NCBI GenBank assembly: GCA_013239625.1
Contig: MU053810.1
Span: 4,372,071-4,436,070, forward strand
Source: Lama guanicoe
Lineage: Eukaryota
DNA: 64,000 nucleotides
Direction: 5' to 3'
The position numbers and the translations under genes were made by a program. The notes under the pieces were generated by a model, which was not told the origin of the DNA, did not search any database, and saw only the letters and a program-made list of their open reading frames with translations. Positions 46,115 to 52,109 of the stretch are shown piece by piece. How positions within the stretch are numbered: position 1 is the first letter of the stretch; each line of letters starts with the position of its first letter.

Positions 46115-46791
46115 TAAAGTATTAAACGAAAATTCTAGATTTGAAAAGTAAAATGATCAGAACTTGAAATATTCTGGATGGGCTCAACAGCACATTTGAG
46201 ATGGCAGAATAAATAATCAGTGAACTTGAATACAGATCAATAGAAATGATCTAATCTGAATATCAGAAAAAATATTTTAGGAACATGAACAAAATCTCAG
46301 AGACCTGTTGGACAACATCAACTATACCAATATCCATATAACAGAGTCCCAGGAAGAGAGAAGAAAGTGAAATAGGTAGAAAATTAATGGCCCAATACTT
46401 TCCAAATTTGATGAAAACTGTTAATATACAGATACAGATCCAAGAAGTTCAGTGAACCCCAAGTAGGATAAAGAGAGAGAGCCCCTACAATTAAGCACAT
46501 CATTATTATTACTCTACAGAAAAGGCCAAGATCAAGAGAAAACCTTGAAAGCAACAAGAGAAAATTAACTTACTATGTTTAGGAGAATGACAAAGTAATT
46601 AACATACGACACCTCATCAGAAACAGTTGAGAACAGAAGATAGTGAAGTGACATCCAAAATACTGAAAGAAAAAAATTATCAGCCAAGAATTCTCTACCC
46701 AAGCAAAACTATTCTTCAAAACTTTGGGAAAATAAAGACATTTCCAAATGATCAAAGACAAAAAGAGTCATTGCACATAGATCTGCCTTAC
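46115..46791 (+). mobile_element. Old L1 ORF1 region, the host of the NACC1 insertion; resumes at about 51700-52100
   Basis: gatgggctcaacagcacatttgagatggcagaa; ORF1 C-terminal remnant LKEKNYQPRILYPSK...GKIKTF. Confidence 0.8.
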
Positions 46792-47874
46792 AAGAAAAAG
46801 TTTTTATTTTTTATTTTCTACTTTCTACTTATTTATTTATTTGGTTACAAACGCACTTGGTTTACTCTCCTCATCAGTATCACTGATATTCTCACGATTC
46901 ACATTTCCCAGTGCGGCTCCTCTTCTTACAATAGTTAGTGTGCAATCTCACTTACGGGCCTGGGGAGGGGGGCTTGGTCCAGGGCAGGGACGGCATTGGC
47001 ACTCCACGTGGACAGGGTGGGTCGTCTGTCCTGCGTCAAAGAGGTACGGGTGAATGGGCAGCCAGGGGAGGTGGAGGGGGCCCTCCACAGTCTTTTTTTG
47101 TGTTGGTCAGTGATTCTCCACTCATGCTCCTTCCTGGCTGCCCAGGTTGGGGGAGGTCCACGCAGCTCAGGGTCGGGCAGGGCGGGGAAGGGGGAAGGAA
47201 CAGCAGCAGGCAGCCCAGGAGCAGGGAGGGCAGGGTGGGAGGGGCACAGGGGTGGCCCCTGGGGTAAGGCACAACACTGTCTTGGGCTCTTCTGGTGAGG
47301 AGTTTCCTCCCCTGCACCCCTGCCCAGCCCCTCTCTCAACCCCTCAACCCCTCAGCACCCCCCCCCACAGTCCCGGGAGCCAGGGGCACCTCCTGGGGTT
47401 CCTGAAATGAGAGAGCTCTGCCACCCAACCCAGTGCTGCAGGAGCTTGGAGGAGGAATAGGGGAGAGCCCCACCCGAGGACAAGGCAGGGAGGGGCTGGG
47501 CAGGGGCCTGCCCAGGACAAGGGGTGGGGAGGGAGAAGACCCCAGTCCCAGAGAGCTGGCCCCGCTAAGGCCTGGAAGGAGGGGAGTGCCCGGGGACTCC
47601 TGCTTCCTTTTGGGGTCTGACTGGTGCCTCAGCCCACCCCAGAGCCTTGGTTGGCCCAGCGGCTTGCCACGTGACCAACACCAGGGATGCCCTTCCAATG
47701 TAGCTCCGAGGGGGAGGCATCAGGGGTGAGGGGGAACTCGCCAGACCCACAGGAACCCAGGCAGAGCGGGAGTTGGGACCCCACCTTGGAAACGCAAGCC
47801 CACACTCCATATGCATGTGCACATTCAGCCTGTCCCCGGCGCCCTACCCTATCTTGTCTTCCACGGCCTCAGGG

Positions 47875-48155
47875 ACCGAAGGGAACATCAGATATAGTCC
47901 CGTTGGTTTGAAAAAATAAAAACTTTAATATTTCATTAGCTAAAAAAATGTTTTCAAAAGTATGTACTGGGGGTAGGGGGTGGGGGCTTGGAGGCCTGCC
48001 CTGGGGGCGGGGTGAACCGAAGGGAACATCAGATATAGTCCCGTTGGTTTGAAAAAATAAAAACTTTAATATTTCATTAGCTAAAAAAATGTTTTCAAAA
48101 GTATGTACTGGGGGTAGGGGGTGGGGGCTTGGAGCCCTGCCATGGGGGTGGGGTG
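47875..48155. repeat. 141-bp tandem duplication in the NACC1-copy 3' UTR
   Basis: accgaagggaacatcagatatagtcccg starts at both 47875 and 48016; copies identical except a few substitutions in the last ~25 bp. Confidence 0.95.
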
Positions 48156-50875
48156 GGGGTGGAGAAGGGAGGGAAAGGCAGCAGCCCCCCTCCCCCAGCC
48201 TGCTCCCGCTAGGTGGCCCAGGCCCTGAGAAAGGGGACCTCCCAAGCCCCCCAGGCCGGCCCCTCCCTGTTCCCCGGCCCGGTGAGTGGGGAGACAACTG
48301 CTAGGGGTTGGAGGGGGCAAGAGCTCCGCGTGTGTGCACGAGCGTGTGCTGGAGTAGGCAACACAGACCTCGCACCACCTGCCATCCTCTCCCAGCCCGA
48401 TCCCCCGTCAGATTGGGGTCAGGGGGCAGGACAGCAGAGGCAGAGGGTCCAGGAGCATGCAGTGCCCCCCGCGGGTCCTGGGGAAGGGCAGACAGTAGCT
48501 CATGACCAAGATGGTGGGAGGGTGTGACAGGAGGGGGAGTGTGACGGCCCCACAGGAGGGTCTGGCGGGGGTTACTGGAGGGCCTCATTGGCTGAGGGGC
48601 CAGCCTCGCCGTCGTGGCTGGCCGTCTCGAAGCCATGCTCGGCACCCATCATATCCGGCTCTGTCTTACCTGTGTAGCTGAAGGAGGTGGTGGAGGGGTC
48701 ACCCTCGGCCATGAGTGGCTTGACCTTGGAGATCCATCTCTTACGCATAACGCGGCGGGCGTTGGTGCACATGTCGGCCACGATGGTGTTCATCTCCCTC
48801 TCCCTGAAGCTGGGAGTAAAGTTCTGGCAGTAGCCTGTGTGGGCAGAATGGGGAGCTCAGGCTGACCGTGGCCTTGGCCTCCCATCCTCCAAATGGGCAC
48901 TCAGCCATGCTGTTCCAAAATCTCCCCACTACACACTCACACCCACCCACCCACACACACACACGCGTGCGCGGCACCCCTCAACATCCCCCAGAGGTGA
49001 GAGAACCGAGGCGTTGCAGACAGCACACTAAAACACATCCTTGGGCCCCGGGCCTGACTGAGCTTGGCCATGAGGTGTGGATTTGATACGAGATGGCCCA
49101 GTGCTCTTGAAAAATGTGGGTCATTTGCCAGAATTTAGAAGCTGGGCGATTCCACGTGAAAATCTAGCCTTCCCTCCTGACAACTGGCACGTTTTAGACC
49201 CTCTCCCATAGGCTTTGTGGCTTCCCTTCTGTGTACCCCACCGCAAGAAATCTCCAATCCTAGCCCTCTTCCCAACAAGCCTAGGCTGAACCTCAGAATC
49301 CTTCTTAACACCTAACTCTACCCATCCATCAGGATCAACAACACCAGGGAAAAGGACCATCTGCCCACCCCAGGCCCCCCACCACCCCGACCCAGCAAGC
49401 CAGACACTCACACTTGACGGCATGGAGGATGCCACTATCCAATGGTTTGCGGCTGAGGTTATTGGAAGGACGGATGCCGGTGCCGCAGCTGTTGGCCAGG
49501 GTGATCCTAGGTAGGGGCCAAGGAGGAGGGGAGTCAGGCCTGCTGTGGTGGTGGGGGGGACACAGGGCAGCCCCATTCCCTCCACTCTGGGGGCTCTGGC
49601 ATGGGCCTCACCGGTCAAAGAAGGTGCCCAGGAGGCGCCGCAGCAAGATCCTGTGCTCCATGCCTGCGTTGACATGGCAGTTCATGAGCTGCGCCCTCGT
49701 GATATACACGTTGGTGCCTGGAAGTGGGGGGGCCAGAGGATGGCCGGGGGCCTAAACTGCCACACCCCCCACATGGCCAGGCTCTGGCCTGGGCTGGACC
49801 AAGACCCTCCTTGACAACTCAACCCAAAGTGGCCACATCAGCACTCAGGAAAGGACAGAGACTGTGGTGCCACCATCCATGGGGCACCCATGACGGGCTC
49901 TTGCTCACACAAACACCAGAGCAGGCAGCAGAGGCTCACACCCTGGCACCCTGGCTCCAAGGGCCAAATTCTTAACCACTGTGTTAGCTCACCCTCAAAC
50001 CACGCTATGAAACCACCCCATGTGGCCAACAGTGCTGCCAACACTTACACCAGCTTCCGCGGTGGCCACCTAGAGGTCAGTCTTTGATTCGTATCAATGC
50101 TGAGGGGGTGTCAGCTGCCCCAGGACACAGCCAGTGGGCAGCAGGGCTGAGACTGGACCCTGAGTCTGGCTCCTAACCACTACGCCATAGGCTGCCGGCC
50201 CAGAGGACACCACGGCCCCAGGTGGAGGAAGGAGGAATTCAGGGAGGAAGTGAGGCTGGCCCACCTGTCACCAGCTCCAGCTTCTCAAAGGGGTCACCCT
50301 CCTCAGAGAGCTTTGGGTGGCAGCGGTTGCCAATCTGTTTGACGAGCTCAGCCAGAAGAGACTCCTGGTCTTGCTGCACCCATATGCGATTCACGGACTT
50401 AGGGGCCACATGCTCATGGAAAGCCTCCACCTTCCCGGCTGGAAGCGGGAGAGAGTGGCGTGCTGGGGACAGGGGCAGCAGGAGGGTAATAGGACCAGGC
50501 TTGGGGGCCGGGGGGGCGCCTCACCTGTCTGGTCGACATTCACCATGCTGCGCATGGTGTGCATGTTGCAGATCTGCAGGTAGTGCTCATCTGTGCCCTC
50601 GTCGCTCGCCTCCTCCTCCTCATCCGCCTTGCTGTCGTAGGAGCTGGGGCTGTCGCTAGTGTTGGCGCTGGAGGTACCAGGGCTGGACCACTCTGATGTG
50701 CTGGGCCCACTCACCACTCCCCCTGCTGCTGCCACCACTTCCACTGCCGCTGCCCCCTGAGTCGGTTGCCCAGCCCAGGCCCCTGCAGCCACCCGGGTGG
50801 GCTGTGCCGCAGCCACCACCACAGGGGCCTGCTGGGACTGCCTGCTGGCGGCCAGGTCCAGCATGGACAACTTGA

Positions 50876-51490
50876 TCACCTTGCGGCGCCGTTGCCACCA
50901 CTGCCACCCTCAGCTTCCTTCTGGCCGCTGCCCCACAGCCGCTTGGCCATGGGCGTGCACTGCACAGAGTCCGACTCCTGCTGCTCTGTCTTGACACGAC
51001 ACACGAGGGCCCGCGGTTTGTCACAGGCCGGCCAGCTTGACTTCTGCACCGCAAGGTTCTGGGGCTCGGACGAAGGGGCCTTCTCGGCATGCAGGCCCTG
51101 GGAGTGGCAGCTGGGGGAGCTCACCTTGAGGAAGGAGTTTTTGGCTTTCTCCACGATCTCCTGGATCTTCAGGAATCCGGCCGTATACATGATCAGGAAC
51201 TGGTCGCCCATGTTCATGCTCAGCCGGCCCGTATAGCAGAAGGTGAGGATCTTCTGGAAGGACTGGGGCTGCACGGCCTCCGGCAGCTCCACCACAGCGC
51301 TCCAGCTGCTACTGAACCGGTCGCGGAAGTAGGAGCTGCTGGCGGCCAGCACGGCCCGGTGGGCCTTGAAGCCATGGCCCTTGACCATCACCGTCACATC
51401 GCAGTACAGGCCCTGCAGCCGCTGCTCGTTGAGGAACTCCAGGATGGTGCTGCCGAAGTTCGGGATCTCCAGCAGCAGGATCTGGGCCAT
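50876..51490 (-). CDS. Open frame of the NACC1 retrocopy: 204-aa BTB/POZ-only product, truncated by frameshift (expression unknown)
   Basis: Strong Kozak gccaccATGG; BTB motifs LNEQR..G.YCDV and [14 protein letters not shown]. Confidence 0.35.
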
Positions 51491-51685
51491 GGTGGCAGTG
51501 GCTGCTCCCAGACTGCGCTCAGGGGGCTTCCTGCGGGCTCTGCAGCGGCTGCTGGGCCCGGCCTGCGCCTCGGGCGCGCCCCCGTGCGCCAGGGCCTGGG
51601 CGCCGGCCCCCCGCGGCCTCCGCGACCCCCGCGGCTTCCGCCTCAGCAGCAGCTGCAGCCTCGGCGCCCATTCACTGTGGGCCAG
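51491..51685 (-). promoter_or_regulatory. CpG-dense 5' UTR of the NACC1 copy (small CpG-island-like segment)
   Basis: Dense CG dinucleotides (cgggcgcgcccccgtgcgcc, ccgcggcctccgcgacccccgcgg) next to AT-rich L1; activity not shown. Confidence 0.4.
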
Positions 51686-52109
51686 AAGAAACAGTTTTTA
51701 AAGTCAATATTTTTAAAAAATGACATGAGACAATAATTTAAAATCAAAGGAAGAAATGAAGAGATCAAAGATGGTAAATATGTAAGTAAATAAAAGACTA
51801 CTAAAATATTTTTTCTGTTAATTTTAATAAAAATGATAAAATTATATAAAGCCATAATTTAAGACTATTATTGGGCTTATTACAGATATACTTACACTAT
51901 ATGTAATACTAATAGCACAAAGTGGGGAAAGGGTAAAGCTGTATTGGAACAAAATTGTTTTATTTTACTAGAATGTAGTCCGTATTAACCTGAAGTCAGT
52001 TGTGATAAATTAAGATGAATATTGTAATCCCTTGAGCAGTCCCTAAGAAAGTAACTCAAAACTAAAGTTTAAAATAGTAAAGGAATTGATAGCAGTACAC
52101 TAATATTCC

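Follow-up and report, generated by a model that had tools for sequence, protein, structure and literature searches.

How does a copy of NACC1 that bears the marks of L1 retroposition come to be split by introns? The question is raised by a locus of Lama guanicoe, in a stretch of 64,000 nucleotides on contig MU053810.1 of assembly GCA_013239625.1 (positions 4,372,071–4,436,070 of the forward strand), hereafter called the window. The copy lies on the minus strand at window positions 46844–51685, is set in an old L1, and has a GC content of 0.54–0.66 versus 0.28–0.45 in the surrounding AT-rich DNA. It consists of five coding segments split by four introns, all of the GT..AG type (Table 1). Judged by its sequence, the locus is a semi-processed NACC1 retrocopy that keeps four of the five parental introns, a member of a known but rare class.

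Comparison with the parental gene carries this conclusion. NACC-like loci were sought in the window's own assembly (55231 contigs), and four further places were found. One of them is the parental NACC1, on contig C8169 and hence on another contig than the copy, the exons of which give an open frame of 535 codons. Exon 1 of the parent ends with ...GGCGCAG/GTGAGG at C8169:662458 and the start of exon 2 follows ...CCCCCATGCAG, with acceptor CAG, at C8169:674672; intron 1 therefore measures ∼12.2 kb. The copy reads ...GGGAGCAG/CCACTGCCACCATGG, with exons 1 and 2 fused without a base gained or lost, 11 nt ahead of the ATG, and its leader passes directly into CCACTGCCACCATG without an acceptor tract. 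From the ATG exon through the proximal 3′ untranslated region (3′UTR), the copy forms a single match with C8169:674668–677923 (88.1% identity over 3327 columns), and more 3′UTR pieces match C8169 as far as the cleavage site. Introns 2–5 are collinear with their parental counterparts over the full length, at the lengths and identities given in Table 1, and GT..AG is kept at every splice site. The match to the parent is confined to window positions 51685–46844, with none beyond the leader on the 5′ side or past the cleavage site on the 3′ side. The parental 3′UTR has a 378-N gap (C8169:679501–679878; L012 7001–7378), so that ∼400 bp of the 3′UTR of the copy (window ∼47192–47592) are compared only with other retrocopies.

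A second NACC1-derived locus, a fully processed pseudogene on contig C2250 (designated C2250 below), serves as reference. It is like the copy in its parent, its leader–exon 2 junction and its cleavage site, but unlike the copy it has lost all five introns, and its coding sequence (CDS) has 12 indel events, one stop and a 65-bp insertion; a further insertion of ∼420 bp lies in its 3′UTR, and the observed/expected CpG ratio (CpG o/e) is 0.30. In the copy and in C2250 alike, the match to the parent stops at TTTGTAAC and gives way to an A-rich tail, while the parent goes on with unrelated sequence. In the copy, the match ends at 46844, 17 nt past the polyadenylation signal AGTAAA (AATAAA in the parent and in C2250), and an A-rich tract of 37 nt then reaches the target-site duplication (TSD). 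The two TSD copies, AAGAAAAAGTTTTTA (46792–46806) and AAGAAACAGTTTTTA (51686–51700), are identical at 14 of 15 positions. The consensus of the L1 endonuclease is TTTT/AA, and the pre-insertion site on the plus strand, GTTTTT/AAAG, is of this type. The T run at the nick goes on into the complement of the tail, which fits poly(A) priming at an L1 endonuclease nick.

Both flanks of the insert are old dispersed repeats (66–82% identity). The left one encodes, on the plus strand, the double-stranded RNA-binding-like domain of L1 ORF1 (PF17490, E 1.5e-7). Flank contiguity was judged by BLAST spacing in paralogous L1 copies. The left-flank search gave 11 such loci, with a short right-flank match in three and uninterrupted spacing (70 versus 71 bp) only in L028. 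The right-flank search gave 13 loci; in six of these a homologue of the left flank precedes the match in the same orientation, at near-contiguous spacing in two (90 versus 73 and 66 versus 48 expected) and 170–250 bp wider in the other four. The order, strand and spacing of the flanks in these paralogous copies indicate that the L1 resumes beyond the insert. When the two flanks were joined and aligned locally to one paralogous L1, shuffled controls extended equally far, which made the alignment uninformative.

An earlier sequence-only reading of the window had proposed that a partly spliced, polyadenylated NACC1 transcript was reverse-transcribed. That proposal is supported by the exact exon 1–exon 2 junction, 11 nt upstream of the ATG, by the collinearity of introns 2–5 (87–94% identity) and by the bounded homology. 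Its descriptive claims also hold: the decayed poly(A) after AGTAAA, the TSD with one mismatch and the L1-type nick site; the placement within an L1 that resumes on the far side, now backed by PF17490 in the left flank and by flank order in paralogous L1 copies; the four GT..AG introns, which agree in coordinates and length and correspond position for position to those of the parent; and the CpG-rich leader that meets the ATG without an acceptor tract. Its statement that a non-coding exon 1 lies far from the ATG exon agrees with the ∼12.2-kb intron on C8169. What could have spoken against that reading was not encountered: the parent does have an intron before the ATG, homology stays inside the TSDs (51685–46844), and an intact parent exists on C8169. 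The 1-bp deletion that breaks the CDS of the copy was absent from it.

Comparison with the parent and the flanks establishes L1-mediated copying of partly spliced NACC1 RNA as the origin of the locus. The transcript was polyadenylated and lacked the 12.2-kb intron 1, while introns 2–5 were still in place. It was reverse-transcribed by the L1 machinery and inserted into the old L1 by target-primed reverse transcription, and the product is a semi-processed retrocopy with five exons. As to class, the copy has the attributes of an L1 retrocopy, being transcript-bounded, with a poly(A) tail, a TSD at the nick site and a new location. With four of five parental introns present it is not fully processed; with intron 1 removed exactly and introns 2–5 retained it is semi-processed; with no homology beyond the transcribed region of the parent it is not a segmental duplicate; and the 1-bp deletion deprives it, in this genome, of the intact frame of a functional retrogene. 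Of the two domains of BTB-BEN proteins (NACC1/NACC2), the N-terminal BTB/POZ is present; for the C-terminal BEN the separate exon pieces of the window give no match, and the alpaca model scores at the cut-off. This origin, taken together with the fate discussed below, is very probably the best explanation of the locus as a whole.

A counterpart of the copy is modelled in alpaca. In a protein search (1000 proteins among 1592 candidates, the best 120 listed), the top match to the first 204 residues is XP_072811298.1 (P0001) of Vicugna pacos, with 98% identity. This is a RefSeq protein of 534 amino acids (aa), entitled ‘nucleus accumbens-associated protein 1-like’ with no LOW QUALITY flag in its name, and it is the sole member of its 90% cluster. 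The next matches, among the best 120 of the 1000, are ordinary NACC1 with ≤81% identity. A pig protein (P0095, 70% identical) was rejected as an orthologue, being ordinary NACC1 with an internal gap. In a search for truncated camelid orthologues, none of the 82 proteins with E ≤ 1e-40 listed of 926 candidates (112–357 aa) exceeds 85% identity. Alignment of parent, window and alpaca gives 106 derived residues common to window and alpaca, three found only in the window, one found only in alpaca, and four that differ three ways. The alpaca model has the 3-bp deletion of exon 5 as well, but its frame is whole and reads through the place of the 1-bp deletion in the window. The two differ at 8 of 532 compared residues, alpaca being known here from protein alone. 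A bitter-taste receptor places the genome among llama-tribe camelids: its protein equals that of alpaca at 309 of 311 positions, alpaca equals the sequence common to three Camelus species at 306 of 311, and at four of the five remaining sites the genome has the alpaca state. The animal is thus of the llama tribe, though another individual than that of the alpaca RefSeq model. In the window, the joined coding segments amount to 1601 nt; the 1-bp deletion, between 50888 and 50887, leads into a TGA at 50876–50878, and past the deletion the shifted frame is open up to the normal stop.

Branch lengths for the copy, C2250 and the parent were obtained by three-way comparison. Over 1535 CDS sites they are 138 for the copy, 92 for C2250 and 26 for the parent, with 12 further sites that differ in all three; over 1129 sites of the 3′UTR they are 90, 62 and 19. 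A Camelus ferus GenBank ‘hypothetical protein’ of 168 aa, P0301, is the translated counterpart of C2250 (89% identity, versus 85.6% to the parent and 66% to the semi-processed copy), which places C2250 before the camel/llama split; P0301 is itself likely to be a mis-annotated pseudogene translation. Since its branch is longer, the copy should be older still than C2250, and the branch lengths, with the 106 derived residues common to window and alpaca, point to an old insertion event.

For a copy of this age, the frame has suffered little. When its substitutions are placed at random on the ancestral frame, a mean of 4.5 in-frame stops is expected; the copy has none, an outcome reached in 0.9% of 10,000 trials (P = 0.009). 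Its CDS has two indel events per 138 substitutions versus 12 per 92 in C2250 (Fisher P = 0.0012), and its own introns (1315 bp), when aligned to those of the parent, have 17 gap events. For the leader, the CpG o/e of the copy is 0.74 and that of the parent 0.88; for exon 2 the values are 0.51 and 0.58. C2250 has 0.30 over the same region, and the CpG island retained by the copy suggests long protection from germline methylation. A profile search detects the BTB domain (PF00651) in the first 204 residues at 90.1 bits after 22 replacements, compared with 95.5 for the parent and 82.1 for P0301, and this domain matches the structure of the human NACC1 BTB (3GA1, E 3.8e-60). The reading that is favoured by a small measure is that selection kept the frame open while the residues were little constrained, and that decay of the copy is now under way, at least in this lineage. 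The copy would have remained spliceable with its CpG-island leader kept, selection would have held the frame open for much of its life while the protein changed almost freely, and the 1-bp deletion would now truncate it past the BTB domain here, the alpaca RefSeq model being whole. A past function of the copy is plausible but unproven.

Several results weigh against selection on the frame and favour a copy that arose in the same way from partly spliced RNA and was dead on arrival, with an open frame owed to luck and an alpaca model annotated by similarity. Changes on the copy branch are even over codon positions (42/52/44; 4/4/18 on the parental branch), and omega, at 0.77, is indistinguishable from 1 (P = 0.13), with 0.60 for C2250 and 0.11 for the parent. 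Once CpG sites are set aside, the CDS of the copy evolves at 6.6% and its 3′UTR at 5.75% (P = 0.43). Replacements are spread evenly over the BTB domain (17.6%), the linker (22.7%) and the C-terminal part (18.0%). The BEN signal (PF10523) is eroded to 23.1 bits in the alpaca model, against a cut-off of 23.2 and 35 bits in pig NACC1. The 8 differences in 532 residues between window and alpaca are no fewer than a bitter-taste receptor suggests (2 in 311 for the same pair) and show no sign of recent constraint. No Camelus protein occurs in the 90% cluster of the alpaca model, and the frame is broken in this genome. What a dead copy leaves unexplained is the lack of stops, the deficit of indels compared with the less-substituted C2250, the contrast with the gaps in its own introns, and the CpG island, which C2250 did not keep. 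Death on arrival is accordingly a serious contender, judged a little less probable than even. Positive selection, considered because of the excess divergence of the exons, was rejected, CDS and 3′UTR being alike after polarising and CpG removal. The four RNA runs among 24 listed hold 0.08–0.18 of the sampled words and give no evidence of transcription.

A bolder version of selection on the frame is rather unlikely. In it, the copy would once have worked as a five-exon retrogene, and may do so even now in alpaca; over tens of millions of years its frame would have stayed open as the protein drifted almost freely. With introns present, an early stop would expose the transcript to nonsense-mediated decay. 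Were selection to act on the transcript, or on a BTB partner of NACC1 under loose constraint, the frame would be kept and the residues would not.

Explanations that dispense with the copying of a partly spliced transcript fare far worse. A fully processed retrocopy could have regained its introns by gene conversion from the parent, and this would suit introns 3 and 5, which are nearer the parent (94.3 and 93.3%) than are the exons (86.8–89.6%). For these two introns, non-CpG divergence is 47/1015 (4.6%) versus 107/1347 (7.9%) in the exons (P = 0.0013) and lies below the branch of the copy itself in CDS or 3′UTR. Such low divergence is a difficulty for the favoured history, since it is not what neutral introns that arrived in one old event should show. 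The short introns 2 and 4, however, are not closer to the parent (16/174), and the block of exon 4, intron 4 and exon 5 between introns 3 and 5 is 12–13% diverged, which makes conversion limited to two introns unlikely. Moreover, introns 3 and 5 lack long identical tracts, with 3–6 differences per 100 bp, and four conversions would be needed, each ending exactly at exon borders. Gene conversion is thus very improbable; composition-dependent mutation or constraint on the introns are possible reasons for the low divergence of introns 3 and 5. An Rfam search of the retained introns gave no match at E ≤ 0.1.

Segmental DNA duplication of NACC1 with later loss of intron 1 has in its favour that four introns are present, as they would be in a DNA duplicate. 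Even so, it is less credible again, because homology runs from the first leader base to the cleavage site with no promoter or downstream DNA copied, because intron 1 is missing to the base, and because the insert has a poly(A) tail and a TSD at an L1 nick site. Lastly, the mixing of NACC1 reads into an L1-rich region during assembly, conceivable in a fragmented assembly of 55231 contigs with a 378-N gap in the parental 3′UTR, can be dismissed as scarcely credible at all, given that the copy differs from the parent at ∼12% of sites throughout, that 14 DNA runs among the 24 listed, under three organism labels, hold 0.62–0.68 of the sampled words of the stretch (unaligned), and that the alpaca RefSeq protein has 106 of the same derived residues.

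L1-mediated copying of partly spliced RNA has precedents. Rodent Ins1, as described by Soares et al. in 1985, is reportedly the classic semi-processed functional retrogene. Semi-processed retrocopies, including this preproinsulin I gene, form an established class in the excerpts available of PMC3449122, PMC5470649 and PMC4151081. As far as these excerpts go, Ins1 and the NACC1 copy are alike in their partly spliced pre-mRNA source, their poly(A) tail and flanking repeats, and the keeping of some introns with exact removal of others; Ins1, according to the part available of PMC3449122, keeps one of two introns together with parental upstream regulatory sequence. Unlike Ins1, the NACC1 copy keeps four of five introns, starts at the first leader base with no upstream DNA, and combines a putative function with a broken frame. 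The GENCODE excerpt (PMC3491395) counts eight partially processed pseudogenes in human; these cases are annotated there as pseudogenes, whereas for the orthologue of the NACC1 copy there is a model of an intact protein. The insertion of TMF1 into CYBB, as excerpted from PMC4151081, resembles the NACC1 copy in being L1-mediated, in its retained introns and in its AGUAAA-type signal, but it arose recently as a human disease insertion and is truncated at its 3′ end, which lies within an intron. Unlike it, the NACC1 copy is ancient and full length, from transcript start to normal poly(A) site. A polymorphic human NACC1 retrocopy insertion is named in the part available of PMC3663115. No paper was found on this locus or on ‘accumbens-associated protein 1-like’; the literature matches listed for intron retention leave NACC1 unmentioned, and those listed for camel and alpaca retrocopies hold nothing relevant.

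The 3′UTR of the copy lacks two parental segments of ∼470 and ∼613 bp (break points ∼48207 and ∼47666), both of which are present in the parent, in C2250 and in the 3′UTR-only fragment on contig C6804. Their edges carry short direct repeats (GGGAGCA; TGGTCAnTTGG). Removal of these segments as spliced introns was ruled out, since they lack GT..AG ends and the repeats at their edges amount to microhomology; from the sequence of the break points, they are deletions or template jumps of reverse transcriptase. The same 3′UTR contains a tandem duplication of 141 bp (47875–48155; copies 98% identical), a stretch that is single in the parent and in the other retrocopies. At the opposite end, the leader of the copy contains an upstream open reading frame of 50 codons (51519–51671, minus strand), with its ATG close to the 5′ end. 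ATGs occur there in the parental leader too, but the frame that they open is far shorter.

Among the remaining places, the C6804 fragment agrees with C2250, and not with the parent, at several derived bases of the 3′UTR, a hint that the two have a source or time of origin in common. The distant locus on contig C4400 is probably NACC2. At C12519:14447641–14448144 lies a nuclear insert of mitochondrial origin, which comprises cytochrome b and genes next to it and has TGA codons and a frameshift; the 14 matches to cytochrome b include no true mitochondrial contig.

Table 1. Parts of the NACC1 semi-processed copy and its surroundings in the window, followed by other NACC-like loci of the same assembly (contig coordinates)
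Feature	Position	Strand	Remarks
5′ TSD copy	51686–51700		equals 46792–46806 at 14/15 positions
Leader from parental exon 1, 184 nt, CpG-rich	51502–51685	−	80.5% identity to C8169:662284–662458; CpG o/e 0.74
Exon 2 equivalent (11 nt 5′UTR, ATG at 51490–51488, BTB)	50525–51501	−	exon 1/exon 2 junction at 51502/51501
Retained intron 2, 86 bp	50439–50524	−	GTGAGG..CAG; 90.7% identity to 87-bp parental intron
Exon 3 equivalent	50265–50438	−	86.8% identity to parent
Retained intron 3, 547 bp	49718–50264	−	GTGGGC..CAG; 94.3% identity to 550-bp parental intron
Exon 4 equivalent	49612–49717	−	87.7% identity to parent
Retained intron 4, 105 bp	49507–49611	−	GTGAGG..TAG (CAG in parent); 87.3% identity to 103-bp parental intron
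Exon 5 equivalent	49412–49506	−	in-frame 3-bp deletion, common to alpaca model
Retained intron 5, 577 bp	48835–49411	−	GTGAGT..CAG; 93.3% identity to 520-bp parental intron
Exon 6 coding part with TAA stop	48572–48834	−	89.6% identity to parent
3′UTR, ∼1.7 kb	46844–48571	−	AGTAAA at 46861–46866
Decayed poly(A) tail, 37 nt, A-rich	46807–46843	−	follows end of match to parent
3′ TSD copy	46792–46806		pairs with 51686–51700
Host L1, end of ORF1	46200–46791	+	PF17490, E 1.5e-7, on 46603–46791; dispersed repeat, 66–82% identity
Host L1 resumed past insert	51701–52100	+	dispersed repeat
Fully processed NACC1 pseudogene	C2250:2399121–2404001	−	same leader–exon 2 junction; exons 2–6 abut directly
NACC1 retrocopy fragment, 3′UTR only	C6804:4676728–4678360		A-rich tract after N gap
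Distant NACC-like locus, large introns (probably NACC2)	C4400:577584–603150		75–80% identity to coding exons

Each semi-processed retrocopy freezes a splicing intermediate, and the class is rare. The NACC1 copy records a polyadenylated RNA from which the 12-kb intron 1 had been removed while four short introns (86–577 bp) stayed; detained introns would be expected to give just this pattern. The copy shows, too, that a complete gene of several exons, CpG-island leader included, can arrive by retroposition. In practice, one may take the locus for a DNA duplicate, and camelid assemblies disagree on its status, with a protein model in alpaca and a frameshift here.

What is new here is a semi-processed NACC1 retrocopy with an intact orthologue model in alpaca and a hint, unproven so far, of long frame maintenance. 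By the count of stops and indels, its frame is one that stayed readable unusually long in llama-like camelids. If this keeping of the frame reflects selection, the locus would offer a natural test of whether retained introns aid the survival of a retrocopy. Should the working five-exon retrogene prove true, retained introns would change how selection polices a retrocopy.

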